DNA from: an uncultured bacterium
GTDB lineage: Bacteria; Babelota; Babeliae; Babelales; Babelaceae
Reading direction: 5' to 3'
Length of the DNA stretch: 64,000 bases
Assembly (NCBI GenBank): GCA_963717435.1
Contig: OY970332.1
Coordinates: 576,001-640,000, forward strand
Position 1 is the first letter of the stretch, and each line of letters begins with the position of its first letter. A program made the translations under genes and the position numbers. Shown piece by piece: positions 6,839-54,753 of the stretch. The notes below the pieces were generated by a model. That model was not told the origin of the DNA and did not search any database. It worked only from the letters and a program-made list of their open reading frames with translations.

Positions 6839-7816
6839 ATGTTAGAAACAATAGATCAAGAAAAGTTACAGAAAATCAGCACAGATTTTCAAAAGTTAAC
6901 TGAGGAAGTTGGCAAAATTATTGTTGGCCAATCTGAGATAACAAATTTTATTTTGCTAGGTATCTTGTGCAACGGGCATATTCTGCTTGAGGGCGTTCCT
7001 GGTGTTGCAAAGACCACTATGATAAAAGCTATCACCAAAGCTTTGGGTTTAGAGTTTAAGCGAATACAGTTTACTCCAGACTTACTTCCGGCTGATTTGA
7101 TTGGCACATTAATTTATAATCCCAAGATCCAAGATTTTGAAACAAAAAAAGGGCCAATATTTGCAAACTTAATTTTGGCTGACGAAATTAATAGAGCGCC
7201 AGCTAAAGTGCAAGCAGCTCTATTGGAAGCAATGCAGGAACATCAAGTTACTATTGGTTCAGAAACTCACAAGCTTGATGAGCCGTTTATAGTTTTTGCG
7301 ACACAGAATCCGTTAGAGCAAGAGGGTACTTATAGATTGCCTGAGGCTCAAGTTGATAGGTTTATGTTTAAGCTGATTGTCGATTATCCATCACGATCTC
7401 AAGAAAAAGAGATAGTTTTAAAAACTCTTGATTTAAACAGAATAGATCAAGTTATTAATAAAAAAGAGATATTTAACGCCCAAAAACTTGTTGATGAAAT
7501 TTATATCGACGACAAAGTTGTAAATTATATAGTCGATATAGTTTTTGCAACAAGATCGCCAGAATCTTTTGGTCTTTCAAAATTAAAAAACTATATTAAA
7601 TACGGTGTTTCTCCACGAGCAACACTTGCTATTTTTCACGCAGCCAAAGCACAAGCATTTTTGAAAAAGCGTAGCTTTGTTATTCCTGATGATGTAAAAT
7701 TTGTTTGTCAGCCAATCTTGCGACATAGATTAATTTTGACTTATGAAGCAGAAGCTGAAAACATTTTGCCTGATACAATAATTTCGCAAATAATTTCAAA
7801 AATACCGTGTCCATAA
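6839..7816 (+). CDS. MoxR family AAA+ ATPase
   Basis: EGVPGVAKT, RIQFTPDLLPAD, LADEINRAPAK and ATQNPLEQEGTYRLPEAQVDRF. Confidence 0.95.
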   Translation: MLETIDQEKLQKISTDFQKLTEEVGKIIVGQSEITNFILLGILCNGHILLEGVPGVAKTTMIKAITKALGLEFKRIQFTPDLLPADLIGTLIYNPKIQDFETKKGPIFANLILADEINRAPAKVQAALLEAMQEHQVTIGSETHKLDEPFIVFATQNPLEQEGTYRLPEAQVDRFMFKLIVDYPSRSQEKEIVLKTLDLNRIDQVINKKEIFNAQKLVDEIYIDDKVVNYIVDIVFATRSPESFGLSKLKNYIKYGVSPRATLAIFHAAKAQAFLKKRSFVIPDDVKFVCQPILRHRLILTYEAEAENILPDTIISQIISKIPCP

Positions 7817-10396: not shown

Positions 10397-11644
10397 ATGT
10401 CAGGTGAGTATAGCTTGGTGATTAATTTGGAAAAAGGAATGCTGATGCAAAGCCCGGTATGGATACTAAATAGTTCGCTTGCGATAATTTTTATACTTAA
10501 CGTTGGATTTATATTTCTTTCTCGCATTTCTGTGCCCAAAAGATTTAAAGTTGAGTCTGCAATTGTTGTTAAGTCAGTAAAAAGAGAAGCTTCTAAGGTT
10601 GACTGCACAAGAATTGGGACAGAAGACTTGTTCAACACTTACGTTAAGTCCCAAGCAATAAAAGAAGAAGTAAAAAATTTAGTTCCACAAATTCCACAAC
10701 CACCAACTCCAAAACCTATGCCTCAGCTTGAAGAGATTAAGCCTCAATTTTTGGAGCCACTACCATTGAAGTTAAAAGGTATATTGGTTTCCGCCTCTGA
10801 TACAATAGCCCAAGCGATTATCGCAAATACTAAGACATTTAAAGAAGAGCTGTTTTCTAGCGGCGACAAGATTGAAGATGCATATATTTTGAGAATATTG
10901 CCGAATAAAGTTATTCTGATCAGATCAAACGGACAACAAGAAACCTTATATATAACCCAGGCTGATGCTCAGTCAGAAATTACGGTACTAAAAGGGACAT
11001 CTTGGGGATCTGTTGTCAACCCAATATCAGACTATGAATATATTGTTGATCCTGAAAGTTTCTTAAGTCAAATTACAAATCTTGCCCAATTTATAGACGC
11101 GGTTGATCTTGCGACTGTTTTCAGAAAAGGTCAAAGCTTGGGCTGTAGAGTTGGAAGATTAAGTTCCGGTTCTATAGGAGAAGTTCTCGGGTTAAGATCT
11201 GGCGATATAATAACAAAAATAAATGGGATCGAGCCGAAAGATACCAACAGTAGAATAGAAGCTTATAATAATATTAAGTCTTTAAGAGTTGGCGATAAAA
11301 TTAAAGTTGAACTTTTGAGAGACAAGAGAAAAATAAATATTGTTTATTACTTGCAAATTATCGAACCGGGGCCAAAAATTGAGATAGAGCGTCCTGTTAC
11401 TAATGCTAATGCTGGTGCGCAGCCAGCTGCTAACAAAGCTGATATGACAGAAAATATTGAATCAGTTGAAAATACGGCACCTGATATTTTACCTGAAGAA
11501 CAAAAAGAACATATAGAAGAGCAACAGATGGCTTTTAAAAAAATATCAAGAGATATGCAGCGACGTGATAAGCAGGCTATGTTGAATAGTGCTAAGTACC
11601 AAAGGCCAGGAAAAGGCGCTTTGTTGAGACATGTGCAAAGTTAA
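10397..11644 (+). CDS. gspC: Type II secretion GspC-like protein with PDZ domain
   Basis: N-terminal TM, Pro-rich linker, HR-like LKLKGIL...AIIA...GDKI...ILPNKVILIRSNGQQETL and PDZ (LGLRSGDIITKING); directly upstream of a secretin. True start may be ATG 10445. Confidence 0.8.
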   Translation: MSGEYSLVINLEKGMLMQSPVWILNSSLAIIFILNVGFIFLSRISVPKRFKVESAIVVKSVKREASKVDCTRIGTEDLFNTYVKSQAIKEEVKNLVPQIPQPPTPKPMPQLEEIKPQFLEPLPLKLKGILVSASDTIAQAIIANTKTFKEELFSSGDKIEDAYILRILPNKVILIRSNGQQETLYITQADAQSEITVLKGTSWGSVVNPISDYEYIVDPESFLSQITNLAQFIDAVDLATVFRKGQSLGCRVGRLSSGSIGEVLGLRSGDIITKINGIEPKDTNSRIEAYNNIKSLRVGDKIKVELLRDKRKINIVYYLQIIEPGPKIEIERPVTNANAGAQPAANKADMTENIESVENTAPDILPEEQKEHIEEQQMAFKKISRDMQRRDKQAMLNSAKYQRPGKGALLRHVQS

Positions 11645-11671
11645 AATAATATAATTAAAGTAAATTAAAAT

Positions 11672-14236
11672 ATGAGAATAAAAAATTATTTGATACTTTT
11701 AAGTCTGATAACTCTGATAATACAAAGTCAGTGTTTTTCTGAAAATATTCCCGATGTAATTGATCCGGCTAAAGATCAAAACTTAAATGTAAATGATATG
11801 TCTAAGCTGGATAGAGAGCTTATCAGTAATAAGTCTAGTAACCCATCTCAGGAAGAATTTGACCAGCCTGATCAAGATGAGCCATTGGAGCAGGAGCCTA
11901 TTATTGCCCAGGAGATAGAAGGGGATAAAAAACAGGCAGAAAAGAAACCAAAAAAAGAAGAACACAAAGAAAAAAAATTAAGTACGACATATATGACTGA
12001 GTACTTAAGACCGTGGAAAACTGGTGAAGAAAATGATCTTTTGACCATACATTTTGTGGATGCAGATTTAACAAACTTTGTGAAATTTATCGAACAAAAA
12101 TATGACGTTAAATTTTTAATGGACGATGATATTCAGCCAACACCGCAGGGCGGAAAAAATGTTTTAGGAAATAAGATATCATTTAAATCCAATGTTCCAA
12201 TGACCAGAAAACAAGTTTGGGATCTATTTTTAACCTTATTGGATCTTTCTGGTTTGGCTGTTGTACCCGGGCCATCGACAAAAATTTTGAGAATTACCAC
12301 ATCAGATCCAAAATCTCCACTTTCATCTAATAAGGGCCCATTGCCTACTTTTATCGGCACAGATCCAGATTTGTTACCTGATAATGATGCAAGAATTAGA
12401 TATATATATTTTGTTGAAAATACAAGCGTTGCGATAATTAAGAGCGTTATGGATGCTATGCGCAGCGCATCTTCTTCAAGTGTTATAGATTTTCCTGAAC
12501 TTCGGGCGATCATTTTAACTGACAAAGCCTCAACTATTAAATCTTTAATGAAGATTGTCGTTGAGCTTGATAGAGTTAACATGCCCGAAATGATTTCTGT
12601 AATAAAATTAAAAAACGCTGACGCTGATAAAATTGCCGCTTTGTATAAAGCGCTTACAGAAGATGGTTCACAACCATCATCACCATTTGGTCCAAGATTT
12701 GCAACAGCAAGAAGGGCTTCATCTACTACATATTTCCCTGAAGGGACAAGAATAATACCGTATATTGAAAAAAATAAAATTGTTATTTTGGGAACAAAAG
12801 CGGCTATAGAGAAGATTGAAAACTTTATAAAATCTTTTGACCAAGAAATTACGGCGCCATATTCTCCACTTAATATTATTCAACTTAAGTTTATTGATGC
12901 TACAACAACTGCACAAATAATTACCGATGCTACAAAGTTCCAGCAGACAACAGCTGCCGGTATGACCGGTGGTGTGCGTGGCGGTGAAAAATATTTCAAG
13001 CCCGTAACTATAACACCAGAAGCGACAAGTAATAGTTTGATTATTAATGCTGATTATGAAGATTATAAAAAAATACAAGAACTTGTTAATAAGCTTGATA
13101 GAGAGCAGCCACAAGTTGCGATAAAAGTATTGATTTTGGACGTTGATATTACCGACAACAAATATTTTGGAACTCAGCTTAGAAATAAAATTCCTGGGGT
13201 TGCGCCATTTATTGGAAAAAATACTAATTTCCAAAACACTGGTATTACAGGAGTTGTTCAAAATCCCAATGGAACAGGTGCGACAAGATTGCTAGGAGAT
13301 TTGATTAACGTTGTATCAGGAGCTGCCGCGGGTACCACTTTTGTGTCGTTGGGTAACGATATCTATGGTGTCTGGGGGATGTTGCAAATGCTCCAAAATT
13401 TTACAAAGGTTAGTTTGGTAGCCGACCCTTTCTTAGTTGCCACGCACAAGCATCAGGCAAGAATAGCAATTGGGCAAACACGACGTGTTTTGGCTGCGCA
13501 GGTTGTTGGTGGTTCTTCTACTACGGCAGATTCTATTATGGACTTGCCTGCTAATCTTGAGGTTAAACTGACGCCATTAATAAATTATGACGGTACAGTT
13601 TATCTTGATGTTAACGTTACATTACAGCAGTTCACAAGTACGGATCCGACAAGTGGTGATAGAACAGAAAAAACTGTTGCTACTTCTGCGCTGGTTGCAG
13701 ATAGAGAAGTGCTTGCGCTTGGTGGTCTTGTCAGAACTCAGACGACCGCAACACAGTCAAAATTTCCGCTATTGGGAGATATTCCGTTTATAGGTTGGTT
13801 GTTTAAGAATAAGAACAAAGTTGCCACAAAAAGTAGTATTTTGATTCTGATTTCGCCTGAGTTGATAATGCCAGATGATGCTGACGCAGTCGAAGACTTT
13901 ACTGCAAGAAAAATGAACGTAACAAGAGATCTATTAAAGAGTATGCGTCGTAAATATGAACAACGTGATCCGGTTTATAGATGGGTATTTGATGATAAAC
14001 AAAAAGAGCAAAAAGACAAAGAATTGGTAGCTATAGATAAATTTGCAAATGATAAGACAAGATATCTTGATGATAGATTCTTTGAAACAACGCAAGCAAC
14101 GAAAGCGACTTTGGCTATAGCAGAAAATGCTGAAAAAGCTGAAAATGTTCCAGGAGCGAAAAGTAAGCCCAAAAAGAGTTTAGTGGATTATCTGGATCTT
14201 AAGGATGACAAAATTTATGGGGCTCTAAATGATTAA
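11672..14236 (+). CDS. gspD: Type II secretion secretin GspD, copy 1
   Basis: Signal peptide, N0 (IHFVDADL), N1-N3-like repeats (IKLKNADA, IQLKFIDA), LDREQPQVAIKVLILDV and secretin signature KFPLLGDIPFIGWLFK. Confidence 0.88.
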   Translation: MRIKNYLILLSLITLIIQSQCFSENIPDVIDPAKDQNLNVNDMSKLDRELISNKSSNPSQEEFDQPDQDEPLEQEPIIAQEIEGDKKQAEKKPKKEEHKEKKLSTTYMTEYLRPWKTGEENDLLTIHFVDADLTNFVKFIEQKYDVKFLMDDDIQPTPQGGKNVLGNKISFKSNVPMTRKQVWDLFLTLLDLSGLAVVPGPSTKILRITTSDPKSPLSSNKGPLPTFIGTDPDLLPDNDARIRYIYFVENTSVAIIKSVMDAMRSASSSSVIDFPELRAIILTDKASTIKSLMKIVVELDRVNMPEMISVIKLKNADADKIAALYKALTEDGSQPSSPFGPRFATARRASSTTYFPEGTRIIPYIEKNKIVILGTKAAIEKIENFIKSFDQEITAPYSPLNIIQLKFIDATTTAQIITDATKFQQTTAAGMTGGVRGGEKYFKPVTITPEATSNSLIINADYEDYKKIQELVNKLDREQPQVAIKVLILDVDITDNKYFGTQLRNKIPGVAPFIGKNTNFQNTGITGVVQNPNGTGATRLLGDLINVVSGAAAGTTFVSLGNDIYGVWGMLQMLQNFTKVSLVADPFLVATHKHQARIAIGQTRRVLAAQVVGGSSTTADSIMDLPANLEVKLTPLINYDGTVYLDVNVTLQQFTSTDPTSGDRTEKTVATSALVADREVLALGGLVRTQTTATQSKFPLLGDIPFIGWLFKNKNKVATKSSILILISPELIMPDDADAVEDFTARKMNVTRDLLKSMRRKYEQRDPVYRWVFDDKQKEQKDKELVAIDKFANDKTRYLDDRFFETTQATKATLAIAENAEKAENVPGAKSKPKKSLVDYLDLKDDKIYGALND

Positions 14237-15848
14237 GAATATTTTTATTCCAGAAAAGATAGGTGATAATTATTTATTTACAAAAAAAGTCTTGGGATTC
14301 GATATTGGAAAATCTTTTGTAAGAGCTGCACTTTTAACCTTAAGCGGTAAATCTCGCAAGATAGACAACCTTTTTGATGAGCCCTTGGACGCTAGTTCTG
14401 ATCTTACTTATCAGGAAAAAGTCTCTTCAGCTATAAAAAATATTTTGTCAAAATCTGGCAAAGTTGACAAAGTTTATACTAGCCTTTCAAGCTCGCCTGT
14501 TATATTCAAAGAACTTAAATTGCAAATCTTGGGTATTAATAAAATTAAGCTTGTTTTGCCATTTGAGCTTGAAGGACAACTTCCATTTTCTTTGGACCAG
14601 GCAGTTGTTGATTGTGTGATAGTTGATGAAAATACCAAAGAAAAATATTCAACAGTGATAGTTGCAGCTGTAAAAAAAGAAATAGTTGATGAACATGTTG
14701 CGATGTTTCAGGCTGCTGGTGTTTTGCCCGACAAAGTGACAGTAGATTTATTTGAGATTTATGGGACATATAAATCTATGCTCGGTCAGAGTAAAGCTGC
14801 TTCTTCTACTTCTGCTGATTCTATTGCTATGTTAGAAATCGGTATTTATGCAACTAATATAATTTTAATACATAATAACAATCTAAAATATATAAGATCT
14901 TTGCCAAAGGGTCTAAGTTGGATATCAAAAAATATTGCTGCCAACTTAAATCAAGACCAGGCCACAGTGCTTGAAAATATATTGCGTTTTGGTCTAGAGG
15001 GCAATGATAACAAGCAATTTGATGAGCAATTAAAAGGGCAGCTTTCAGAGATTTTAAATGAGGTTAGTTTTACGCTTGATAATTACACAACAAAAAACAG
15101 AATACCAAATGTTAGCAAGATTGTTTTATTTGGCCAATCAGAAAATATTAAGGGATTTGGTGAACTTGTTACAGAGAAATTGGTTAGCTCAGAAGAGCTT
15201 GATCTAAAACCAATTTTTGGTAAATCTGTTGAGGGTCAATACGACGTGGCGATAGCAACTGCCTTTTCAAGTCAGTTAACTGAAAACTTTAATTTATTAA
15301 AAGAATCAGCTTTCAATGAAACTAACAGATTAATTAATAAGCAGTTAATAGCAGCTTTAGTTTTATTTTTGTTAGTTTTTTTAAGTTTTTATCTGCATAG
15401 TTTTTTAACTTATAGAAAACTAAAAAATGAAATTTATGATTCAGAAAAGCAAGCTATTAGTTTAATTACTAAAAAGATTAATCTTGAAAAGAAGCGTGGG
15501 GCTCGGAAAGCATCTTCGCTTAAAGAAGTGATCGAAGCTGCTAAGTCAACACTGGAGAAAGAAGAAAGTATCTGGTTTGCTTTGTCTAGTAAAAACAGGT
15601 ATTCGTTTTTGAAATATCTGCAAGAGTTAACTACAAAAATAGACAGAGAAGGCGTTGGATTAGAATTAAAGAAATTAAGAATATATAATTCTAATAACAC
15701 GACAAAGATCGATCTTGAAGGTAAAGTTAGAGATTTTGATGCTATAAATGTTTTTGAATCACAACTGAAATCAGGGATGTTTGAAGGGGTGCCAAGAATA
15801 GAGACCCCAGATTTTGATATAACATTGGTTGTGAAAAAAGAGGATTAG
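14229..15848 (+). CDS. gspL: GspL/PilM-PilN-like assembly platform protein
   Basis: Actin-like cytoplasmic domain (LGFDIG, ELEGQLPF), single TM and PilN-like periplasmic domain (IDLEGKVRDFDAINVFESQLK). Confidence 0.75.
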   Translation: MIKNIFIPEKIGDNYLFTKKVLGFDIGKSFVRAALLTLSGKSRKIDNLFDEPLDASSDLTYQEKVSSAIKNILSKSGKVDKVYTSLSSSPVIFKELKLQILGINKIKLVLPFELEGQLPFSLDQAVVDCVIVDENTKEKYSTVIVAAVKKEIVDEHVAMFQAAGVLPDKVTVDLFEIYGTYKSMLGQSKAASSTSADSIAMLEIGIYATNIILIHNNNLKYIRSLPKGLSWISKNIAANLNQDQATVLENILRFGLEGNDNKQFDEQLKGQLSEILNEVSFTLDNYTTKNRIPNVSKIVLFGQSENIKGFGELVTEKLVSSEELDLKPIFGKSVEGQYDVAIATAFSSQLTENFNLLKESAFNETNRLINKQLIAALVLFLLVFLSFYLHSFLTYRKLKNEIYDSEKQAISLITKKINLEKKRGARKASSLKEVIEAAKSTLEKEESIWFALSSKNRYSFLKYLQELTTKIDREGVGLELKKLRIYNSNNTTKIDLEGKVRDFDAINVFESQLKSGMFEGVPRIETPDFDITLVVKKED

Positions 15849-15856
15849 GAACGATA

Positions 15857-16414
15857 ATGCAACTATTTGATAAATTAAAAGATTTTATTAAATCGCTTGA
15901 CCAGAACTCTTTTTATAAATATTTATCAGCGATTTTATTTGCTCTTTTTTTGTTAATGGGACTTTTGATTTGGCGATATTACAGTAACGTTAATTATTAC
16001 TTAAAAAAAATTAAAGTTGTTAATATGCAAAGAAAAGAGGTGGCAGATCTTCTTGGTGAATTTGAGACAGTAAGGGCTCAGGAAAAAGAAGTTTCTGAAA
16101 TTTTGGAGCAAGATACGAATTTTAAAATTGCCCAGTTTATGCTGAACGTGATAAGAGATACGGATCTTGGGCAAAATAATTCAAAAGAGCCAGAATTAGT
16201 TGAAGAAGAACTGGATAACGAATACACAGAAATAAAGTTGGTCACAAGTTTTGTTAATTTAAATATGCAGCAGCTATGTGGGCTATTAACAAAAATCGAT
16301 CAAGATGAACGTGTTTATACAAAAGAGCTTATTATAACCAAAGTGCCTAAAAAACCGTATATTGATGTTACACTTGAAATTGCTACATTAAAACCTAAAA
16401 GTACTTCTGCTTAA
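15857..16414 (+). CDS. gspM: GspM/PilO-like protein
   Basis: One TM, coiled coil and ferredoxin-like C-terminal pattern; follows the gspL-like gene. Confidence 0.65.
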   Translation: MQLFDKLKDFIKSLDQNSFYKYLSAILFALFLLMGLLIWRYYSNVNYYLKKIKVVNMQRKEVADLLGEFETVRAQEKEVSEILEQDTNFKIAQFMLNVIRDTDLGQNNSKEPELVEEELDNEYTEIKLVTSFVNLNMQQLCGLLTKIDQDERVYTKELIITKVPKKPYIDVTLEIATLKPKSTSA

Positions 16415-16416
16415 TC

Positions 16417-19275
16417 TTGGAAAGATCCTGGATGAAAATGATAAAAATTGAAAAAAAGAGTAAATCGATGATGTATCAGTTTTTGATTTTTATTTTGCTG
16501 CAAAATTTTTGTTCAAAAATTTTGGCAGAAACAGAATCTGAAAAACATCATAAAAAACATGATGTTCAAAATAGTACAGATATTACGGCTACCAATACTG
16601 TTTTGGCCGAAAATAAAGGCGATAATATTACATCCGGAACTTCTGTAAGTTCTGAAACTAAAGCTCCAGCAGCTTCTGTCCCGGTCCAAGAAATCAAACA
16701 CGAAACTGTCCAAAAAGATTTAAAACCAACAGAGACAGTAGCAGTAGCTAGCCAAGTTGGCTCGGTTCAGCCACAAGCTGAATCTGTGCCCGTAGCCCCA
16801 GAAGTGCCCGCTGCACCAGCTGAACAAGCTCCAAAAACTGCAGCAGCTACACAAAAAGTCGAAACAAGCAGAGTAGTTCGTAAAGCAAATAAAGAAAAAA
16901 ATAGAAAATTTGAAGAATCGCCAGAGATAGAAATTCAGCCTGGAAAAATATTGGTAGATTTTACTTTCTCAAACGAAGATCTTTCAACAATAATAAGTAA
17001 AGTTGCCAAAGCAAAAGACATTAATATTATTCTTCCATTGCCACCACATAATATTAATCAGAAAGTAAGTTTTGGTGTTAAGGGCAAAATTACAGTTGAT
17101 CAGGCTTGGGAATATCTTCTTTCTATGATGGAACTTTCCGGATATTCTATAACAAAAGATCAAAATGGAATTTATACAGTTGTGAAAAATAATCACAATG
17201 TATCGCGCGAAAACATGCCGTTATATGTTAATGTGCCGCCTGACAAATTACCATTTACGGATCAAAGAATCAGATACGTTTATTATTTGAGTAACATGAG
17301 AGTGCCTGAACAAGCCCAGGGCCCAGAACCGCTTAATTTGCTTTTGAAAGAGATATTAAGTGTTAACGGCATTTTTATGTACGATCCAAAATCTAACGCG
17401 GTAATTATTATCGATACAGCAAAAAATATCGCGAGTGTTTCTGAGGCTGTGATTAAAATGGACAATATTGGCTATAAAGAGGGTTTTGAGTTTGTCCAAC
17501 TTCTTTATACGTCAGCAGCAAATATTGTAAAGTTGTTAAAAGAGCTTGTTCCTCAAGTGACAGATTCTAAGTATCCGTCTATGCGCGGTAATCTAAAAAC
17601 AGATTCAAGTTACTATTTTAGTCCCGGAACCAAAGTAGTTGCAGCTGAGCGTGAGAACCGCGTAATTATTATAGGTAGGGATACTGCGATTTCCAGAATA
17701 CGTGATTTTATCACACAAGAATTAGATGTTGCTCCTGAATCTGGTAAGTCGATATTGCACACATATGATTTACAGTATCTTGATGCCGAGTCTTTTGCCA
17801 AAGATTTAACAAAAATAGTTTCTTCTGGCGGCGGCGCTTCTGATCAAACAACAAGAGAAGCGGTATCCGGCGGCCCTGAAAGATTTTTTGAAGGGGTTAT
17901 TATACTTGCTGAAGCTTATAAAGAAGTTAAGCAAGCTGTTGCTGTTGCCGGCGCAAAGGCGGGAGATACACAAACTGATACAGCTGGCTCAGCAGTTTAT
18001 CAGGGTGGTAACAGACTTATTGTTGCAGCAAGAGAGAGTGATTGGTTGCGCATTCGAGAATTAATAAGAAAGCTTGATAAACCGCAACCCCAAGTTATTT
18101 TAGAAGTACTGGTACTTGATATAACCAAATTAACTAATGACGATATATCCGGAAGTATACGTAATGCTGGTGGTTTGTTTAATAAACCCGATGGACCAAA
18201 TTTCTTGGCGTCAAATATTGCAAATATTAACGACACTCTTTTAAATGGCGGAACAATTCCTACACCAGTGCCGCCGACTTTGGCTGCGGATTTGCTTAAA
18301 TATTTAACTGAAGCTAACTCAATAAACGTGCCGACAGGCTCATTTATAATGTCATTTAATGATCCTAATGGTTCAGGCATAAGTACTTTATTAACTGTAC
18401 TTAAGGCCAATACAAATACCAAAGTATTATCACATCCATTTTTGGTTACGACAAATAATAAATCAGCTTTTGTAGAGTCTGTTACCATAAGACGACAAGC
18501 CGGTGAATCTGACGCTCAAAAGGCATCCGGTGCTATCACAATTAAGCAAGAAGATATTCCTGCAAAAATTCGCGTTGATCTTGTGCCGAGAATAAGTTCA
18601 TTGGACAGATTAAATCTTAAAGTTAACGTTTATATTGAGGACTTTAACGCTCCTCAATCTACGACCGACTTTTCAAGAACAACTCGTACGGTATCGACAA
18701 ATGCCAATTTGGGCAGCGGACAAGTTCTAGCTCTTGGCGGATTATTGCAAACGGTTGAAAATCATGATGAGTCTGGAACTCCGTTGCTTTCAAAAATTCC
18801 AATTATCGGTTGGTTATTTAAGAGTGAAACCATAACATTATCAAAGAGTAATATCATGGTATTTATCTCGCCAACGATTGTTGATCCTAAATTGAGAATG
18901 GGTGTGAATAGATACACTACTGACAAAATTAAACAGCTTAACAAACAGGTTGACGAAAAAGATGAACCTACAGACTTTGTTGAGCCTATACAGCACTTAT
19001 TCTTTGGCGATACCCGTATTGGTGAAGCTGGTACTGAAAATTATTTGAGAGATTCGAAGAATACAAACATAAAAATAGAAGATGTTTTAACTAAAAAAAG
19101 CAAAAAGTTCAGAGCGAAAAAAACAAAAGCAAATAATTCGCAAAATCCACAGGCCAATAATTTGCCAGCCAGAGCCGTCAATTATGACAGCTCTGGTGAA
19201 AAGGCAAAAGCTGTTAAAGAGCTTATAGCTTTTGAAGATAACCCATTTTTAAGAGTTAAGGAGCGAAAGAGTTAG
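16417..19275 (+). CDS. gspD: Type II secretion secretin GspD, copy 2
   Basis: Signal peptide, long Ala/Pro/Thr-rich linker, N0 (FTFSNEDL), LDKPQPQVILEVLVLDI and GTPLLSKIPIIGWLFK. Exact start uncertain. Confidence 0.86.
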   Translation: MERSWMKMIKIEKKSKSMMYQFLIFILLQNFCSKILAETESEKHHKKHDVQNSTDITATNTVLAENKGDNITSGTSVSSETKAPAASVPVQEIKHETVQKDLKPTETVAVASQVGSVQPQAESVPVAPEVPAAPAEQAPKTAAATQKVETSRVVRKANKEKNRKFEESPEIEIQPGKILVDFTFSNEDLSTIISKVAKAKDINIILPLPPHNINQKVSFGVKGKITVDQAWEYLLSMMELSGYSITKDQNGIYTVVKNNHNVSRENMPLYVNVPPDKLPFTDQRIRYVYYLSNMRVPEQAQGPEPLNLLLKEILSVNGIFMYDPKSNAVIIIDTAKNIASVSEAVIKMDNIGYKEGFEFVQLLYTSAANIVKLLKELVPQVTDSKYPSMRGNLKTDSSYYFSPGTKVVAAERENRVIIIGRDTAISRIRDFITQELDVAPESGKSILHTYDLQYLDAESFAKDLTKIVSSGGGASDQTTREAVSGGPERFFEGVIILAEAYKEVKQAVAVAGAKAGDTQTDTAGSAVYQGGNRLIVAARESDWLRIRELIRKLDKPQPQVILEVLVLDITKLTNDDISGSIRNAGGLFNKPDGPNFLASNIANINDTLLNGGTIPTPVPPTLAADLLKYLTEANSINVPTGSFIMSFNDPNGSGISTLLTVLKANTNTKVLSHPFLVTTNNKSAFVESVTIRRQAGESDAQKASGAITIKQEDIPAKIRVDLVPRISSLDRLNLKVNVYIEDFNAPQSTTDFSRTTRTVSTNANLGSGQVLALGGLLQTVENHDESGTPLLSKIPIIGWLFKSETITLSKSNIMVFISPTIVDPKLRMGVNRYTTDKIKQLNKQVDEKDEPTDFVEPIQHLFFGDTRIGEAGTENYLRDSKNTNIKIEDVLTKKSKKFRAKKTKANNSQNPQANNLPARAVNYDSSGEKAKAVKELIAFEDNPFLRVKERKS

Positions 19276-29802: not shown

Positions 29803-31062
29803 ATGAATAACATCAAAAAGTTCGGTTTTTTGCTTTGTTTTGTAGTACTCAGTTCTTTTAAATTAGCTTTTGGTATGGCTACAAAGCAAAATTTAATAAG
29901 AGTTGTGCCGGTTTCTTACAATCAAGTCTCTGATCCAGACAAAAATGGATGGAACATTTTGTTGGGACATGATACCAATCCAGCCGGACCTTATTGGAAC
30001 GATTTTTCTCTTCCTCAAGGGCATGGGGCATCCTTTGGAGGTCTTTTTGGAAAGCCTAGTGATCTTGAAGTTGCCAAAAATGCTTTATCTTCAAAGACTA
30101 ATAATATATATAACGATTCAACTGTTGATTGGCAAAGAGCCGTACAAGTTTTTGATTCCCCAAGTGGGAATACATTTTATTTTGTTCCCGTTAAGATGTT
30201 TAAGACAAATAGAGACTTGAACATATCTGGACAAAATCAGCAAAAAGATAATTTTTCTTGGGTTCAGGCAGCTAGTCTTTTGATGCCAAAAAGATCACCG
30301 GGCCAAGATGTTCAATTGATTTGGTACGGAAAAGCTGGAAAAACCCAGAGTTATAATATATCGCGCGGTTTTTTGGATCAAATTAATCGCGTTTGGGATA
30401 ACAGTTTATTATCAAAACTTAATAGTTTATTGCCTGGCCAAAATCAGGTTCAGTCTCAGATGCCACAGTCTGGAATAACCTGGCTAAATATACCAGCAGG
30501 ATCCCTAAAATTTTACGAAAAGAATAAGCCCTACTACGAGTTTACAAACTTTTATGAACCCAAAAAACCGATAAATATCGACAAAAGAGAATGGAAAACA
30601 AGCGAGCACTATTTCCAAGCTATGAAATTTACTGATTTAAATACCCAGGAAACAATAAGAAATCAATCTAGTCCAAGAGATGCTTTTAGTCTTGCCAGGG
30701 ATCTTATAAACAAAAACAAAAGTCTCTTAGTTGCAAATTGGCACAAGTCAGTAAAATATCAAGCTATGTTGGATGCGTTAAAAGCAAAGTTTAGCCAAGA
30801 TAGTTCTTTAAAAAATCTTTTATTAGGCACTAATAATTTAATATTGGTAGAAGATACGGGCCTTAACCCAAATAAGAATCAAATTGATACTGAATGGGGA
30901 GCTGGGCTTGATGGCTTGGGCCAAAATCATCTGGGAAGACTTCTTATGCTTGTTCGTGAAGAATTAAAATCTGGCAAGAAATTAACTTATGATCCAGATA
31001 AAACACTTAGTCTTGATGCTCTTAAAAAAGTTAATTTTGATCTAAATAAAGTAAATTTTTAA
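29803..31062 (+). CDS. Secreted protein with C-terminal NADAR (YbiA-like) domain
   Basis: Signal peptide; FTNFY, TSEHYFQAMKF, KAKFSQ, LLGT...LVED, WG...GQNHLGRLLMLVREEL. Confidence 0.85.
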   Translation: MNNIKKFGFLLCFVVLSSFKLAFGMATKQNLIRVVPVSYNQVSDPDKNGWNILLGHDTNPAGPYWNDFSLPQGHGASFGGLFGKPSDLEVAKNALSSKTNNIYNDSTVDWQRAVQVFDSPSGNTFYFVPVKMFKTNRDLNISGQNQQKDNFSWVQAASLLMPKRSPGQDVQLIWYGKAGKTQSYNISRGFLDQINRVWDNSLLSKLNSLLPGQNQVQSQMPQSGITWLNIPAGSLKFYEKNKPYYEFTNFYEPKKPINIDKREWKTSEHYFQAMKFTDLNTQETIRNQSSPRDAFSLARDLINKNKSLLVANWHKSVKYQAMLDALKAKFSQDSSLKNLLLGTNNLILVEDTGLNPNKNQIDTEWGAGLDGLGQNHLGRLLMLVREELKSGKKLTYDPDKTLSLDALKKVNFDLNKVNF

Positions 31063-31072: not shown

Positions 31073-32122
31073 TTAAAGATCGACAAGATATATTTTGCCA
31101 TCTTCGCTGCCGCTTGCAAGCTTGTTTCCAGCCTTATTAAAAGCTAAAACTTTAACTTTTTTACCTGCATAAAAATGTTTGATAACATTCCCCGAATTTA
31201 TATCAAATATTTTAACAAAGCCCCCTTTGTCTCCAGTTGCCAATTTTTTTTCACTATTATCTACTGAAAAAAAATAGATTTTATCTTTGTTTTTTAAGCT
31301 TTTTAACTGTTTATTGTTTTCAAGATCCCAAATAATAACTTCATTTTCTGTCCCTATAACTAACTGCTTATTATTATTTATAAATTCCAAATCAATTAGA
31401 TTTAAATTTTTTAATTTGTCTATTGTGTTAACGCGTTTATTTTCTTTCATATCCCAAATTTCAACTTTTGAATCTTTATCCGCTATAGCTATTAATTCTC
31501 TATTGTTTGAAAATTTTATTTTGAAGCACTCTATGTTTGTGCTTATATTTTGCAGCTCTTTGCCGTTTTTGGCATCAACTATTTTAACGTCTTTATCTTC
31601 ACAGAAAGCTGCCAATTCTGCTTTGTGAGATATTGTCAGATATACTATGCTACTTGGTCCCAAATCTGCCGATTGTACAGTTTGCCCATTTTTGCCATTA
31701 ATTATCTGTGTTTTGTTTCCCATCAATGCAAATATATCACCGCTATCTAGAAAAATTACCTGCTCTATAGGTCTTTTTGCTGAGATATCAAAAATCGATT
31801 TTGAGTTGGCCCAATCCCAATTTTTTAAACTGCCATCTTTTGCGCCACTTACGAATTTGTCAGATTTAGAATTTATATCCCCGCAACAAACTGAATTGTG
31901 AGTTAAAACTTTTGTAATTTTTGTATCGTTAATATTGGGCCAAATTTTTATTGTATTTTCATATATTGCAAATAGTTGATCTTTTCCATCAAATTTTAAA
32001 CTCAGAATTTCAGATCCCTCTGAGGAAATATTTGTCGGTTTTGACTCTGTTTCTAATTTATTAAAAATAACCAACGATATAGCTGAAAATATAACTATAT
32101 TTATAACGTTAACTTTTTTCAC
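31073..32122 (-). CDS. Secreted WD40 repeat protein (degenerate repeats)
   Basis: Signal peptide; about 7 repeats ending IW/WD/FD (SGAKDGSLKNWD, ASGSEDGKIYLVD). Confidence 0.85.
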   Translation of the reverse strand: MKKVNVINIVIFSAISLVIFNKLETESKPTNISSEGSEILSLKFDGKDQLFAIYENTIKIWPNINDTKITKVLTHNSVCCGDINSKSDKFVSGAKDGSLKNWDWANSKSIFDISAKRPIEQVIFLDSGDIFALMGNKTQIINGKNGQTVQSADLGPSSIVYLTISHKAELAAFCEDKDVKIVDAKNGKELQNISTNIECFKIKFSNNRELIAIADKDSKVEIWDMKENKRVNTIDKLKNLNLIDLEFINNNKQLVIGTENEVIIWDLENNKQLKSLKNKDKIYFFSVDNSEKKLATGDKGGFVKIFDINSGNVIKHFYAGKKVKVLAFNKAGNKLASGSEDGKIYLVDL

Positions 32123-32231
32123 TTTAATACCCGCTTAATTTTTAAAATTTAAATATCTTAAAGCTTTATTACAAAAAAACAGTTTATGTAAGATATGTTT
32201 AAAAAAACAAGGATTTAAAAATTTTGGGCAT

Positions 32232-32268
32232 AAAAAAACTGGCTTGAGTGATAAATTCAAGCCAGTTT
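32232..32268 (-). terminator. Intrinsic terminator downstream of the tRNA
   Basis: AAACTGGCTTGA/TCAAGCCAGTTT stem with A-run. Confidence 0.75.
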
Positions 32269-32275
32269 AGTAATT

Positions 32276-32352
<77 letters not shown>

Positions 32353-32408
32353 ATACATTCATAATCATAGATTTATTTGCAGGTTTGTCAAACGATTTAT
32401 GCACTAAT

Positions 32409-32816
32409 TTAGCTGATTTTATCGGTGTTATAAGCAATAACAGCAGCCATGGCTGTATCACCTGAATATGTTATAGATACAGAAAAATTTAATTTGTTTG
32501 TTAAATAGTTATTTAATTCAGTATTATAAGCAACTTTTGGCTGTCCATTAACCCCATTTTCTACCCAAATTAGCTTGCAAAGTGTTAAAAATGGCAAATT
32601 CTGCCCCAAAAATGGGGAAATAGCCTTAAAAGTAGCCTCTTTGAAGGCAAACCTGGAAGCGAATCTTTCGCGGGTTTTTAAGGGGTTTATATTCGCCCCA
32701 GATAGGCAATAATCTATCTCTATATCATTAAATATTCTTAACAGCCTAATTCTGGGATAATTTTGCCAGTCTTTGAAGCGTGGGATTTCCACAGAATCTA
32801 TACCAATATTCAACAT
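32409..32816 (-). CDS. acpS: Holo-ACP synthase
   Basis: IGIDSVEI, ASRFAFKEATFKA, GQP and VSIT motifs. Confidence 0.88.
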   Translation of the reverse strand: MLNIGIDSVEIPRFKDWQNYPRIRLLRIFNDIEIDYCLSGANINPLKTRERFASRFAFKEATFKAISPFLGQNLPFLTLCKLIWVENGVNGQPKVAYNTELNNYLTNKLNFSVSITYSGDTAMAAVIAYNTDKIS

Positions 32817-32818
32817 AA

Positions 32819-34012
32819 TTAATTTTCTTTTAAAACAACATATTTTTCGTCAAGCAAAGCATCTTTCAAAATATCGGGCAAACCATTAAATATATTTTTT
32901 AATTTAGGATAAGAAATACTGAAAGGCTTTTTGTCTTTTTGTTCTATTTGCTTATTTCTAAATTTTAAAATCGACTTAAGCAACATATACTGTATTATTT
33001 TATTTTTTCCACTCGATTCTCCGATTACGGATTCTGTTACTTTGTCAAAATATTTGTGCAGCTTTATTAATGATTTTAGATCCCATAACTTAATTGTTTT
33101 ATTATATGACCCGGAAAGGGCATAATTGCCATCAGGACTAAATGCTACTGAATAAACCAAATCACCATGACCAGATAATGTGGCAATAGCATGTGTATTA
33201 GGGTTCTGTTTATTTCTTAAATCCCATAACTTTATTGTTTTATCATCTGACCCGGAAAGGGCATAGTTGCCATCAGGACTAAATGCTACCGAACGAACCA
33301 AATCACCATGACCGGTTAATGTGGCGATAGGCTGTGTATTAGGGTTTTGTTTATTACTTAAATCCCATAGTTTTATTGTGCCATCACATGCCCCGGAAAG
33401 AGCATAATTGCCATCAGGACTAAATGCTACTGAATAAGCCCAACTAGCATGACCGGATAATGTGGCAATCGCATGTGTATTAGGGTTCTGTTTATTACTT
33501 AAATCCCATAACTTTATTTTGCCATCATCTGACCCAGAAAGGGCATAGTTGCCATCAGGGCTGAATACCACTGAAAAAACAGTATTATCATGGCCTGATA
33601 ATGTGGCAATGGCATGTGTATTAGGGTTTTGTTTATTAGTTAAATCCCATAACTTTATTGTTTCATCATCTGCCCCAGAAAGTGCATAATTGCCACCTGG
33701 ATCTGGACTAAATGCTACTGAAGCAACAGCCCCACGATGGCCGGATAATGTCGAAATATTAGATTTTTTACCAGCGATCTCCATTAACTTTTTGATGAAC
33801 CAATTTTGCGGCTTTAAAGATTCTCTCATAATAGATCGCAAAATAAAGAACTTTTTATCATCAGAGGTCCATTGTTCAAGATTTCTCATGAAAGCAAATT
33901 CTTCCTTGCTGCCCTTAATGTTTTTGGAATCCATGCAATTTGTGTGCATAGAAATTAAGCTTAAAGAAATAAAAAATATTTTTTTCTTTATTACTGCATT
34001 TTTAAATTTCAT
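32819..34012 (-). CDS. Secreted WD40 protein with five highly similar 47-aa repeats
   Basis: Start ATG 34012 after GGGG; signal peptide; repeats TLSGHxxxVxSVAFSPDGNYALSGSxDxTIKLWDL. Confidence 0.9.
   Translation of the reverse strand: MKFKNAVIKKKIFFISLSLISMHTNCMDSKNIKGSKEEFAFMRNLEQWTSDDKKFFILRSIMRESLKPQNWFIKKLMEIAGKKSNISTLSGHRGAVASVAFSPDPGGNYALSGADDETIKLWDLTNKQNPNTHAIATLSGHDNTVFSVVFSPDGNYALSGSDDGKIKLWDLSNKQNPNTHAIATLSGHASWAYSVAFSPDGNYALSGACDGTIKLWDLSNKQNPNTQPIATLTGHGDLVRSVAFSPDGNYALSGSDDKTIKLWDLRNKQNPNTHAIATLSGHGDLVYSVAFSPDGNYALSGSYNKTIKLWDLKSLIKLHKYFDKVTESVIGESSGKNKIIQYMLLKSILKFRNKQIEQKDKKPFSISYPKLKNIFNGLPDILKDALLDEKYVVLKEN
33077..33757. repeat. 141-bp tandem repeat array, 5 units
   Basis: ATCCCATA (WD codons) recurs at 33080, 33221, 33362, 33503 and 33644. 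Confidence 0.95.
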
Positions 34013-34029
34013 GAAACCCCAAATATTTA

Positions 34030-34109
34030 AAATTTTATTCGCCGTCGCTAAAGCTATGGCGTAATTTCGCGCTATATACCGGATTAAAAAGCCGGTCGAG
34101 CGCTTCATT
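34030..34109. repeat. Structured intergenic repeat family B, copy 2
   Basis: aaattttattcgccgtcgctaaagctatggcgtaatttcgcgc...ccggattaaaaagccgg...gagcgcttcatt. Confidence 0.85.
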
Positions 34110-39989: not shown

Positions 39990-40829
39990 TTAATTTTCTT
40001 TGATTATCTCTTTAATTCTCGCAGATGACACTAATGTATAAACTACTCGAGCATCTTTTAATTTTTCGCTGGCAGCGTTGCACATCAAGGACGATAGTAA
40101 TTTGTACGAAGCATAAAGCCCGACGACCGCAGATGTTGCGATTCCAGCTATAAGCGACCATTTTTTTAACTCGATTTCCAAATGCAGTTTTTGTGTAGGA
40201 TTAGACTTTATTTTTGCGATAAATTTTGAGACTGTTTCTAAGCTAGGTTTTGCTTTAACTTCCCCAGCAAAATTCATAAATGTATTATAAAGTCCGGTAG
40301 GCGCCATTTCAGGTTGTTTGAAAGGGACAGTTTTTGGGATGCTTGTTGTTTTTTTACCTTTTTTGTTTTTGAAAAAATTGAAAAATCCATCAACAGCATT
40401 ATCAATTCCATCGCTGATTTCTTGGAAACCCCTATCTACCTCTGACGCTATGTGTTTAATTCCGTTATCTAGTTCTACACTAAATGCCGTTACAGTCGCT
40501 GCGGCTTCAAACTCTTGGTGTTGTTTAAAACAGAAATGCGCTAGTTTGTAAGAACCAGCCATAGTCAAAGCGCTTAGGACAAAATTGACGGAGTCTTTTG
40601 AGCTATAAAGAATGAATTTGCTAGCATTTTGGTAATATGCAACATTATTTTGTGCCGAATTAACTAATAAATTTTTAAGATTTTGATCAAGTTCTTCAAT
40701 TTGGCCGAGCAATTTGCTTGTCTTATTTACATCGCAATTATTAACAGAGGCCAATAACTGTTCTTCTAATACTGAATAACTAAGTGCGTTTGAATATATA
40801 ATCGCAAGTGATAATATTAACTTTTTCAA
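39990..40829 (-). CDS. Secreted hydrophobic-hairpin family protein (distant paralog of 40966/41609)
   Basis: TTG start 40829; YSVLEEQLLASVNNCD resembles YTELENKLFDAINNRD, and LKDARVV...ARIKE resembles LKEAQSVV...AKVKE. Confidence 0.6.
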   Translation of the reverse strand: MKKLILSLAIIYSNALSYSVLEEQLLASVNNCDVNKTSKLLGQIEELDQNLKNLLVNSAQNNVAYYQNASKFILYSSKDSVNFVLSALTMAGSYKLAHFCFKQHQEFEAAATVTAFSVELDNGIKHIASEVDRGFQEISDGIDNAVDGFFNFFKNKKGKKTTSIPKTVPFKQPEMAPTGLYNTFMNFAGEVKAKPSLETVSKFIAKIKSNPTQKLHLEIELKKWSLIAGIATSAVVGLYASYKLLSSLMCNAASEKLKDARVVYTLVSSARIKEIIKEN

Positions 40830-40878
40830 GAGAAACCCCAAATATTTAAAATTTGCTTATAATTCCTATATTTTATTA

Positions 40879-40906
40879 AGTATAACAGCTTGATTTTAGC
40901 AGTCAA
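40879..40906 (-). promoter_or_regulatory. Sigma70-like promoter
   Basis: TTGACT-16-TATACT with extended TG; equivalents at 41521-41548 (TATTCT) and 42216-42243 (TAAACT). Confidence 0.6.
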
Positions 40907-40938
40907 AACCCCCCAACTTTAGATGTTTGGGGGGTTTT
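40905..40938 (-). terminator. Terminator of the 40966 gene
   Basis: AAAACCCCCCAA...TTGGGGGGTTTT. Confidence 0.75.
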
Positions 40939-40965
40939 GTTTATAGTAGTTTTTATTTCTAAAAA

Positions 40966-41472
40966 TTAGTTATGTTTTTCATCTTCTTTAACTTTTGCAT
41001 CGGCTATAACACCAACTACACTTTGAGCCTCTTTTAAGTTTTTGTAAGCCCAAGCGCAATAGTAAGCCTTAAATTTTGCATAGATACCAGTACCAATTAA
41101 CAATGTTGCCAATATTGCAAGACGAGAACTTGCTGAAGATGTCGCGGCTTCTGGACCTATTTTAGCAGAACCGGCGATTCCAAATGCTAAAATTCCGAGA
41201 GCTATGTCCACTGTGCCAAAATAGTTAATCAATTGATCCCCGTAGCTGTGATCTATGTTTGTTGTTGCTTTGTAGTATTTTTTCAAATTCTTTTCAGCTA
41301 CATTGGTTACAGCTTCTTTGAGGTCTTTAGATAATGGTTCAAGTTTAGCAACCAATTCTTTTGCCCATTTCTCATCACGATTATTTATGGCATCAAATAG
41401 TTTATTTTCTAATTCTGTATATCCAAATGCGCTTGAAGCACACAGTAAAGATAGTAAAAGTAATTTTTTCAT
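40966..41472 (-). CDS. Secreted hydrophobic-hairpin family protein, tandem copy A
   Basis: Signal peptide; flanks near-identical to 41609..42118. Confidence 0.75.
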   Translation of the reverse strand: MKKLLLLSLLCASSAFGYTELENKLFDAINNRDEKWAKELVAKLEPLSKDLKEAVTNVAEKNLKKYYKATTNIDHSYGDQLINYFGTVDIALGILAFGIAGSAKIGPEAATSSASSRLAILATLLIGTGIYAKFKAYYCAWAYKNLKEAQSVVGVIADAKVKEDEKHN

Positions 41473-41546
41473 AAAAATCCATTTCTTGTTAAAAAGCCTA
41501 CATTTCCCGATACAATATTAAGAATAACAGATAGATTTTGGCAGTC

Positions 41547-41584
41547 AAAAGCCCCCCAGTTTACAGGTTTGGGGGGCTTTTTTT
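41547..41584 (-). terminator. Terminator of the 41609 gene
   Basis: AAAAGCCCCCCA...TGGGGGGCTTTTT. Confidence 0.75.
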
Positions 41585-41608
41585 ATAGTAATCTCTAATT
41601 TCTAAAAA

Positions 41609-42118
41609 TTAGTCATGTTTTTCATGCTTATTTTCTTCATCTTCTTTAACTTTTGCATCAGCTATAACACCAACTACACTTTGAGCCTGTTTTAAGTTTC
41701 TATAGGCCCAAACGCAATAGGCTGCCTTAACTCTTGCTGTGATACCAAGAGCAATTAATCCCGCTGATACTGCTCCACCAATGGCACCTGCTTCTAGATT
41801 TGCTGTTGCAAGAATGAGAGAACCCATAAATCCTAGAAAGCCAAAAGTTATGCCCGTTTTTCCAAAAGAGTCAATCCATTGATCGCCATAGCTATGCCCC
41901 ATGTTTGTTGTTGCCTTGAAGTATTTTTTCAAACTCTTTTCGGCTACATTGGTTACAGCTTCTTTGAGGTCTTTAGATAATGGTTCAAGTTTAGCAACCA
42001 ATTCTTTTGCCCATTGTGCATCACGATTATTTATGGCATCAAATAGTTTATTTTCTAATTCTGTATATCCAAATACGCTTGAAGTACACAGTAAAGATGT
42101 TAAAAGTAATTTCTTCAT
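41609..42118 (-). CDS. Secreted hydrophobic-hairpin family protein, tandem copy B
   Basis: Paralog of 40966..41472. Confidence 0.75.
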   Translation of the reverse strand: MKKLLLTSLLCTSSVFGYTELENKLFDAINNRDAQWAKELVAKLEPLSKDLKEAVTNVAEKSLKKYFKATTNMGHSYGDQWIDSFGKTGITFGFLGFMGSLILATANLEAGAIGGAVSAGLIALGITARVKAAYCVWAYRNLKQAQSVVGVIADAKVKEDEENKHEKHD

Positions 42119-42248: not shown

Positions 42249-43371
42249 TGTCCTGGTTCAATACATATGAGACTGGATCTCCCTGTGTTTAAGTTTCTCA
42301 AAACACTCGTTTGGGGTCAAATACCCCACCCCCTGATGGGGCCTAATTTTGTTGTAAAATTCAACAAAATCTTGAAGTGAAGCTTGTAGATTTTCCAGGT
42401 TTGGTGGACCATCATACTGGCTATAAAACTCGTATTTAAAGGTTCCATTGCCACGTTCAACGTTTCCATTATATTCGGGAGATTTAGGGGGAAGAACCCA
42501 TAAAGGGATGTTAAGTTTTTGGCATAAAGCCTCGAAGTCCGCCATAAATTCACCTCCACCATCAACCTGGGCAGATTTAATTGGGAATGGAAATTCTTGT
42601 ATTGCAAACTGAAGAAAGTCAGCCCCATTGCGACTATTGGCTTCTTTGTAAACTTTTTCCACAGCGATTTTAGTTGTAGGACATATAGCGCTAAATTGCT
42701 TTAAATAGCCTATTCCCGGAACATTAATTGTCATGTGATCAAACTGAACTAGCTCACCAGGAGAACCTGATTTCATGCCTAGCTTCCAACGTTTTGCATG
42801 GCCATTGAATATTCTATTTTTAGAGATTTTTTTGTTGCACAAGAAGTTAACTGGCTGGATTCTATTTTGTCTTACAAATTTCTGGATAATTCGACCAATA
42901 GTGCTTACTGACAACTTTTTTCCATACATGCGTTCATACATTACAGCTATTTTTGCTTTTCCCCATAGCTTGTATTTTTTACGCAATATGTAAATTCTCT
43001 GCTCCTGTTCTTTTGTCCAAGCAGACTTTCGAACATTATTTGGCCGCTTGCTTTGATTCTCTAAACCTTCAAGTCCATGCAATTTATATTGTTTTTTCCA
43101 ACGAAATAGGGTTGATCGAGGAACATCTAACACATTAAATATTGTATCATTCAAAACGCCTTCTGCCCTGAGTAGATCGTATTTCTCAAGCTTTTCTTTG
43201 CGTTCCCAAACAACCTTAGAATATTCAGTTTCATCTATGTTGTTTATGTGATAATATCTTTTACTAATGATACTAGTTTGTATCATAATGGATCTCCTTT
43301 AGAAAAATTGAACTGTTTCTTGGAGATCCATTTTAGTTTATTTTAGTCTCATATGTATATGAACCTGAACA
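42249..43371 (-). mobile_element. IS481-like insertion sequence, copy 1 (1123 bp)
   Basis: TGT...ACA ends; imperfect IRs TGTCCTGGTTCAATACATATGAGACT / AGTCTCATATGTATATGAACCTGAACA; 5-bp TSD ATGGG (42244-42248, 43372-43376). Confidence 0.92.
42258..43286 (-). CDS. DDE (rve) transposase, IS481-like
   Basis: HTH (VPRSTLFRWKK), QFDH, QVDGGGEF, NGNVERGN and YNKIRPHQG...TP. Confidence 0.92.
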   Translation of the reverse strand: MIQTSIISKRYYHINNIDETEYSKVVWERKEKLEKYDLLRAEGVLNDTIFNVLDVPRSTLFRWKKQYKLHGLEGLENQSKRPNNVRKSAWTKEQEQRIYILRKKYKLWGKAKIAVMYERMYGKKLSVSTIGRIIQKFVRQNRIQPVNFLCNKKISKNRIFNGHAKRWKLGMKSGSPGELVQFDHMTINVPGIGYLKQFSAICPTTKIAVEKVYKEANSRNGADFLQFAIQEFPFPIKSAQVDGGGEFMADFEALCQKLNIPLWVLPPKSPEYNGNVERGNGTFKYEFYSQYDGPPNLENLQASLQDFVEFYNKIRPHQGVGYLTPNECFEKLKHREIQSHMY

Positions 43372-51647: not shown

Positions 51648-52181
51648 TTAGCAGCAATCTTTTGTTGGATGATTCGCAAACATTGCAATCATTAACTTCA
51701 AATTTTCAAGTTTTTTAGAATTTTTTTCGTGAAATTCTTTTTCTCTCATCTTTTTATCCAATTCTTTCTTTAAATGCTGCAAAATTAACATTTGGCCCAA
51801 TTTGTGTGCATGGTAGAATCCATAAATTCTACAAGAACTAGTAGCTATAAAAGCTAAAGCTGCCATATTAAATCTCCTTTTATTTATTTCTGACATACCA
51901 AAATTTACGCGTTCTAAAGCCATTATTCTTGCTGCGCCCATAAGTTCTTTGATCATAAACGATTTACCATATTTACAAAGTGGGGCAGTGTTTTTCAATG
52001 CAGCTTCAAATTTGACAGGGTCAACTTCTTTTAATGCCTCAACCATTTCTTTAGAGAACAAATCTTGTTGATTAATGGGCTGCGGTAAAGCTGCGTCATT
52101 TTGCGCCAAGCCAACATTTTCTTCGCCTGCGATATTACTTGCAGATATTACTGTCAATATCGATAAAAATAATTTTTTCAT
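51648..52181 (-). CDS. Secreted hypothetical protein (hairpin family)
   Basis: Signal MKKLFLSILTVISASNIAGEEN; EALKEVDPVKFEAALK motif. Confidence 0.65.
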   Translation of the reverse strand: MKKLFLSILTVISASNIAGEENVGLAQNDAALPQPINQQDLFSKEMVEALKEVDPVKFEAALKNTAPLCKYGKSFMIKELMGAARIMALERVNFGMSEINKRRFNMAALAFIATSSCRIYGFYHAHKLGQMLILQHLKKELDKKMREKEFHEKNSKKLENLKLMIAMFANHPTKDCC

Positions 52182-52199
52182 AATTTACCTTAAAATATT

Positions 52200-52652: not shown

Positions 52653-52662
52653 GATTTTTTCC

Positions 52663-53424: not shown

Positions 53425-53433
53425 TGTTTCCCC

Positions 53434-54752: not shown

Positions 54753-54753
54753 A

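Follow-up and report, generated by a model that had tools for sequence, protein, structure and literature searches.

Two GspD-type secretins in one operon of Dependentiae and the case for a mixed secretin ring

In a window of 64,000 nucleotides from an uncultured bacterium of the Babelaceae (contig OY970332.1, positions 576,001 to 640,000), a type II secretion system (T2SS) operon encodes two paralogous secretins, GspD1 (D1) and GspD2 (D2), alongside one GspC, one GspL and one GspM. Based on covariation between the two secretins and on a structural model of their facing edges, D1 and D2 probably build one mixed ring, i.e., a hetero-oligomeric pore. A preliminary description of this DNA had proposed a hetero-oligomer or a dual channel; the former has gained positive, if not decisive, support, and the latter has remained its main rival. 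The doubled gspD has already been known (published 2015-16), and what is new is the claim of a single mixed pore, which is moderately supported. The five genes form the outer-membrane and docking operon of a phylum-wide T2SS of Dependentiae (Babelota/TM6); homologues with a named source come from Candidatus Dependentiae, Babeliaceae and Babela.

The secretin pair across the phylum

Five co-oriented and closely packed open reading frames (ORFs) are present at 10397-19275 as first described, and the two largest, gspD1 (11672..14236, plus strand, 854 amino acids) and gspD2 (16417..19275, plus strand, 952 amino acids from a TTG), have been confirmed as full GspD-type secretins with the Pfam domains GspD N0, Secretin_N and Secretin. 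The true start of gspD2 is uncertain, with in-frame ATGs a few codons after the TTG. For D1, the order N0-N1-N2-N3-secretin domain-helical tail is based on Pfam, TIGR02517, AlphaFold2 and Foldseek, and D2 has the same domain order; the two proteins are 28% identical over 770 columns. TIGR02517 is the top-scoring model for both, its alignment spanning positions 2-591 of 600, although the scores of 255 bits (D1) and 251 bits (D2) lie below the GspD equivalog cut-off of 351; the PilQ model reaches only 124 and 129, and the SctC model 92 and 85 bits. The AlphaFold2 models, with a predicted local distance difference test score (pLDDT) of 79 for D1 and 70 for D2, contain N0-N3, a complete secretin domain and a helical tail. 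Best Foldseek matches are PulD/GspD for D1 and PulD (6hcg) for D2, while RcpA and InvG match well below GspD for both paralogs.

The segments that had been quoted as unusual and shared do align between the paralogs, but part of them is ordinary GspD sequence: the W-x-x-L helix and the P-L-P-x-F/Y segment align with the usual N0 helix and N0-N1 linker. Among the sequences tested, two motifs mark D1/D2 only, namely LP..[IV]RY (D1 108/134, D2 69/134) and, in the tail, DP[IV]xx[WFY] (D1 63/134, D2 109/134), both of which are absent from 10/10 PilQ-type and 5/5 outgroup secretins. The N-terminal linkers are long and disordered (pLDDT <50) as described, whereas their low complexity has turned out to be only mild (entropy 3.84 and 3.70 vs ~4.0 for the core). 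The C-terminal tails are indeed long (122 and 130 amino acids), with conserved helices at their start. A lipobox motif occurs in 5/134 D1 and 5/134 D2, and no pilotin has been identified for the D1/D2 system.

Among 261 genomes, secretin matches number two or more in 252, one in 6 and none in 3. D2 follows D1-L-M in 182/190 loci (146/150 and 36/40) from all 21 families, counts that are conditional on the choice of genome loci by a D1 match and of metagenome loci by a D2 motif. Of the eight exceptions to the order D1-L-M-D2, six are contig ends, one is a cut locus and one is a genome (G197) with D2 on another contig. Profiles for D1 and D2 separate 302 proteins by at least 171 bits, and either copy is very rarely lost, also in genomes of 0.8 Mb. 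In phylogenetic trees, D1 and D2 form one Dependentiae clade with a support of 100, separate from PilQ-type secretins and proteobacterial GspD; the outgroups are five named proteins, with no deltaproteobacterial GspD among them. The pair is thus conserved across the phylum, and the grouping of one secretin with PilQ/Tad, which the preliminary description had considered, has not been found. Within the clade, FastTree and 53-row trees give essentially no resolution of the subclades D1a, D1b, D2a and D2b, and a support of 35 neither establishes nor rejects a monophyletic D2; the duplication from which D1 and D2 arose is therefore dated to about the base of the phylum.

Covariation and a model of the D1/D2 seam

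Regularised couplings have been computed on a discovery set of 134 intact single D1/D2 pairs out of 150 loci and on a hold-out of 47 pairs at <85% identity, out of 58 pairs from 159 new loci, giving 181 pairs in total. Two cross-protein pairs, D1 D624-D2 R754 and D1 T591-D2 N764, had been named before the last 40 genome loci were fetched and before any new pair was analysed. Over the 181 pairs, they rank first and third of 393,646 cross pairs, and their scores of 10.8 and 9.8 exceed the maxima of the control blocks, 8.8 for D1 with GspL and 8.4 for D2 with GspL. As a check on the method, it is mainly the D1-D1 and D2-D2 blocks in which intra-subunit hairpins have been recovered. Of ten discovery couplings, only D624-R754 (z 2.7) and T591-N764 (z 3.9) survive in 90 phylogenetically independent contrasts, and they lead again when the contrasts are taken on the GspL tree (3.5 and 3.4). 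The D1-D1 and D2-D2 pairs homologous to them are null. The other eight of the top ten discovery couplings have failed the contrast test and have been treated as noise.

Both pairs map to facing strand edges. On the D1 side of the top cross pairs stand codons T556, T591 and D624 (13337..13543, plus strand) at the beta2/beta3/GATE1 edge, and on the D2 side codons R754, N764 and T788 (18676..18780, plus strand) at the beta7/beta8 edge. R754 aligns, via YscC, with V450 of InvG. This residue belongs to the strand-7 segment of InvG, which is wedged between two GATE1 hairpins, those of monomers i and i-1, and takes part in a salt bridge between subunits, according to the accessible part of the structural report (PMC6155069).

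A joint model of three secretin domains, two from D1 and one from D2, has placed them in the order D1-D2-D1 with a score of 0.66, as compared to 0.02 for the best of three controls; the mark is reached by 116/157 solved and 2/215 mismatched pairs, counts that apply only roughly to a job of this kind. At least 77% of the contacts are shared between model runs, and the partner pLDDT is at least 63. T556, T591, R754, N764 and T788 lie within the model interface, in which D624 is not listed, while its neighbours 623 and 626 are. Over the 91 seam pairs at the model registers, the two mixed seams have yielded 4.8 and 3.9 in coupling and 4.4 and 2.8 in contrast, respectively, vs 2.3/0.8 and 1.1/0.9 (coupling/contrast) for the like-with-like seams and at most 2.4 (coupling) and 3.4 (contrast) for shifted registers. 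Mixed seams exceed like seams in 4/4 data splits, and the values of the two mixed seams have been reached by 0 and by 21 of 2000 permutations. Three of the top ten cross pairs fall on the facing surfaces of the model (0.19 expected), and none on the non-facing ones.

Several observations weigh against a mixed ring or weaken the case for it. The alignment is shallow, with ~160 effective sequences for ~1,250 columns, and the hold-out of 47 pairs is weak: D624-R754 reaches z 1.8 (rank 18,636) and T591-N764 z 2.7 (rank 5,320), and two apparent noise pairs likewise reach 1.8. Nor do the hold-out seam sums (1.8 and 2.2) rise above those of the best shifted registers (3.0 and 2.4). On the GspL tree, the D2-D2 seam comes to 3.3 (6/2000 permutations), near the mixed seams, and the D1-D1 pair Q602-V669 has scored 5.9. 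Unguided ladder scans of the seams have been inconclusive, with a cross-block contrast of up to 3.4 at two intra-subunit hairpins. D1 and D2 also covary at the same positions 688, 707, 710 and 765, which hints at gene conversion or shared constraints. The pass of the D1-D2-D1 model may come from likeness to solved homo-secretins, and the model has therefore been used mainly for strand registers; the complex has been modelled as two D1 plus D2 only, and the best-scoring sample has been kept. Copy number is flexible, with tandem D2 in eight loci, tandem D1 in one and the unlinked D2 of G197. Finally, ComEC-like genes are present in 49/49 genomes, including those with a single motor, and a second use in DNA uptake is possible. 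Taken as a whole, this counter-evidence would allow mixed rings of loose stoichiometry as well as separate rings.

The secretion machine and the readings of the pair

The docking proteins of the operon support its assignment to a T2SS, and the gene names given initially have held. The gspC gene (10397..11644, plus strand, 415 amino acids) encodes HR and PDZ domains (Pfam T2SSC 6.7e-08, and PDZ); its 82.8 bits with NCBIfam GspC_delta are under the cut-off. GspL (14229..15848, plus strand, 539 amino acids) combines a PilM-like cytoplasmic domain, a transmembrane segment and a periplasmic part (Pfam PilM_2 2e-25, T2SSL weak), and its gene is the only PilM-like one in the genome. GspM (15857..16414, plus strand, 185 amino acids) itself has no Pfam match and has been named from its orthologues, size and position: T2SSM is matched in 4/17 orthologues, once above the cut-off, and its place in the operon is conserved among relatives. 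With GspM recognised only through orthologues, all three platform proteins GspC, GspL and GspM are present, each in a single copy in this genome of 1.2 Mb, which has exactly two secretins. Scans for promoters and terminators have remained near the level of shuffled sequence (51 vs 39.6 and 8 vs 6.6).

As the preliminary description had stated, GspE, GspF and pilin genes are missing from the window, and genome-wide searches have placed all matches outside it. GspF, a T2SSG-matching pilin and three further N-methyl pilins have been located by profile matches at C1:329985-334889, and the names H, I, J and K for the three further pilins have been inferred from gene order. GspF and pseudopilins including GspG are thus encoded away from the operon. 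A long assembly ATPase gene lies at C1:297400-299146, and its reading frame switches several times in the present assembly. Its pieces are each 46-76% identical to a relative and the gene is intact in 48/48 relatives; the switches are likely a sequencing or assembly error, with recent loss as the alternative. The T2SS genes are accordingly spread over at least three loci.

In a mixed ring, D1 and D2 would be exported by Sec, as their hydrophobic N-termini suggest, and would co-assemble in mostly alternating order, the beta7/beta8 edge of each resting on the beta2/beta3/beta4 edge of the other. Judging from the covariation and the model, the contact of D1 D624 with D2 R754 would join GATE1 to the GATE2 of the neighbour. 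The single set of GspC, GspL and GspM would then dock the ring to the GspF, pseudopilins and long assembly ATPase encoded elsewhere, and the machine may drive folded proteins from the periplasm out of the cell in the direction of the protist host, as expected from T2SS function. Strict alternation would demand an even number of subunits, e.g., 7+7 or 8+8, and not the usual 15. The full form of this proposal, in which a D1-D2 salt bridge would latch the gate of an obligate alternating hetero-oligomeric secretin (e.g., 7+7 or 8+8) that serves this protist-parasitic phylum as its main export route into the host, is more tentative than the mixed ring as such, and we would place it slightly short of an even chance.

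The strongest rival is a dual channel, in which D1 and D2 form separate homo-rings that would take turns on one shared GspC/L/M platform and differ in the substrates or life stages that they serve. Each of the two is a complete, foldable secretin, additional tandem copies are tolerated, some D2-D2 and D1-D1 seam signal is present, and there is a precedent in Pseudomonas aeruginosa, whose Xcp machine can use XcpQ or XqhA, as far as the accessible part of that report goes (PMC6567927). XqhA, however, comes with a GspC of its own (XphA) and with separate regulation, whereas here one GspC and one operon serve both copies. Separate rings also do not predict two-way cross-protein covariation at the seam registers, nor do they sit easily with the very rare loss of either copy in genomes as small as 0.8 Mb. 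We regard the dual channel as unlikely, while it deserves to be weighed seriously.

According to a second alternative, one copy would be the T2SS pore and the other would have replaced PilQ in a pilus, either type IV or for competence. All seven TM6 genomes studied by Yeoh 2016 have been reported to carry two gspD but to lack pilQ by these authors, who suggested such a replacement and left it open (accessible part of PMC4776705), and Deeg et al. 2019 have proposed that pili use a 'derived pulD channel' (accessible part of PMC6561590). The genome studied here would fit: it has ComEC, an isolated PilA-like pilin and a second copy both of GspF/PilC and of the assembly ATPase, the latter short, but no PilQ; an orphan PilO-like gene at C1:445922-446521 is all that it keeps of a pilO-pilP-pilQ-like module. 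Many Dependentiae families, in contrast, encode a third secretin of 450-590 amino acids, for which PilQ has been the best match in 9 of 11 examined (GspD marginally better in 2) and which is preceded by PilO-like genes in six loci and often stands in a pilO-pilP-pilQ-like module. D1 and D2 are both kept in 11/11 examined genomes with such a separate PilQ-type secretin. They are likewise both kept in all 10 of 49 genomes (completeness 88-97%, the single-contig genome G060 among them) that have one assembly ATPase and one GspF, i.e., no second motor and platform. The pair is therefore not accounted for by a rule of one pore for each machine, and the gene content, together with the N0-N3 GspD architecture of both copies, argues against PilQ substitution, which we consider improbable. 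In genomes that have lost PilQ, such as this one, the shared pore may still serve a pilus.

On the side of pili, the presence of a PilQ-type third secretin in many families is contrary to the published 'pilQ absent'. Separate pilus-like clusters have been noticed in G034 (with a true PilM) and on contig C9 of G198 (with an extra secretin, ATPase and GspF), possibly acquired horizontally. No extra PilT-type match has been found in 49 genomes at E<=1e-20.

That D1 and D2 interact otherwise, as stacked rings, with one as assembly factor or gate modifier, or in a machine mainly for DNA or nutrient uptake, could draw on the ComEC-like gene in every genome and directly behind D2 in some loci, on an assembly helper left unaccounted for by the scarcity of lipobox motifs and the lack of an identified pilotin, and on a tail-helix covariation cluster (D1 787-794 with D2 836-840) outside the model's listed interface, but it is the least probable of these readings, as the covarying pairs are found at the lateral edges of strands and not on ring ends, and a T2SS is indicated by a GspC with PDZ and by a genuine GspG (T2SSG).

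Neighbouring genes and known systems

Where D2 is doubled, tandem D2a and D2b occur in one subclade, D2a having kept R754 and N764 in 8/8 and D2b carrying T764 in 7/8; in the genome with tandem D1, the second copy is fast-evolving. In loci L060, L073 and L074, the ComEC-like gene comes right after gspD2 or a short way behind it, in the same orientation. Upstream, a MoxR-type AAA ATPase gene (6839..7816, plus strand, Pfam AAA_3) is separated from gspC by three other ORFs, while in 41/49 relative loci such a gene lies at most 300 bp upstream of gspC on the same strand; a role as assembly chaperone for the secretion system is possible.

Of 41 scanned window ORFs, 18 have no Pfam match, and many carry basic-hydrophobic N-termini. 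Runs of short co-oriented ORFs without Pfam match and with signal-peptide-like N-termini lie at 51648-55398 and 39990-42118, and candidates for secretion are two WD40 proteins encoded at 31073-34108 and a NADAR protein encoded at 29803-31062. Export of such nearby predicted signal-peptide proteins by the D1/D2 system is plausible. The window also contains two copies of a 342-amino-acid integrase-core (rve) transposase (42258-43286 and 62304-63332), which agree in their N-terminal sequence and in their Pfam scores. Dependentiae proteomes are rich in signal-peptide proteins, which account for 44% of the proteome of C. destructans (accessible part of PMC6561590), and the D1/D2 system is an obvious candidate for their exit to the host.

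A mixed ring, if true, would change the thinking on symmetry, gating and substrate recognition in the pores of T2SS, type IV pili and type III secretion systems, and with the named D1/D2 residue pairs a question open since 2016 becomes testable. To our knowledge, the solved secretins are rings of one protein. Literature searches, which covered titles and the starts of abstracts and missed most subscription journals, have returned no natural mixed secretin ring and no co-assembly paper for Dependentiae.

Among known systems, the TM6 pair of Yeoh 2016 consists of the same two genes as here; the accessible part of that paper (PMC4776705) is silent on co-assembly, and in the present analysis PilQ-type secretins coexist with both copies in part of the phylum. 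The mitochondrial T2SS, as described in the accessible part of PMC8134430, is similar in having two co-inherited secretin paralogs, GspD and GspDL, in one T2SS-derived system, and differs in being eukaryotic, with split and truncated genes and co-assembly not shown there. XphA/XqhA of P. aeruginosa shares the feature of two secretins on one inner-membrane machine, whereas its own GspC, its location outside the main locus and its separate regulation mark it as an alternative pair, which the accessible text does not describe as a mixed ring (PMC6567927). Canonical GspD, PulD and XcpQ (PDB 6hcg, 5wq7, 5zdh, 5wln) share with the D1/D2 system the N0-N1-N2-N3-secretin-tail architecture, a GspC with PDZ, GspL/M, GspF and GspG, and canonical rings are given as 15-16 copies of one protein (accessible part of PMC8134430). 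Unlike these, the Dependentiae system has a pair of paralogs in each operon, N-terminal linkers that are long and disordered, the lineage-specific motifs LP..RIRY and DPIxRWFF, secretins that score under the GspD equivalog cut-off, and genes distributed over at least three loci.

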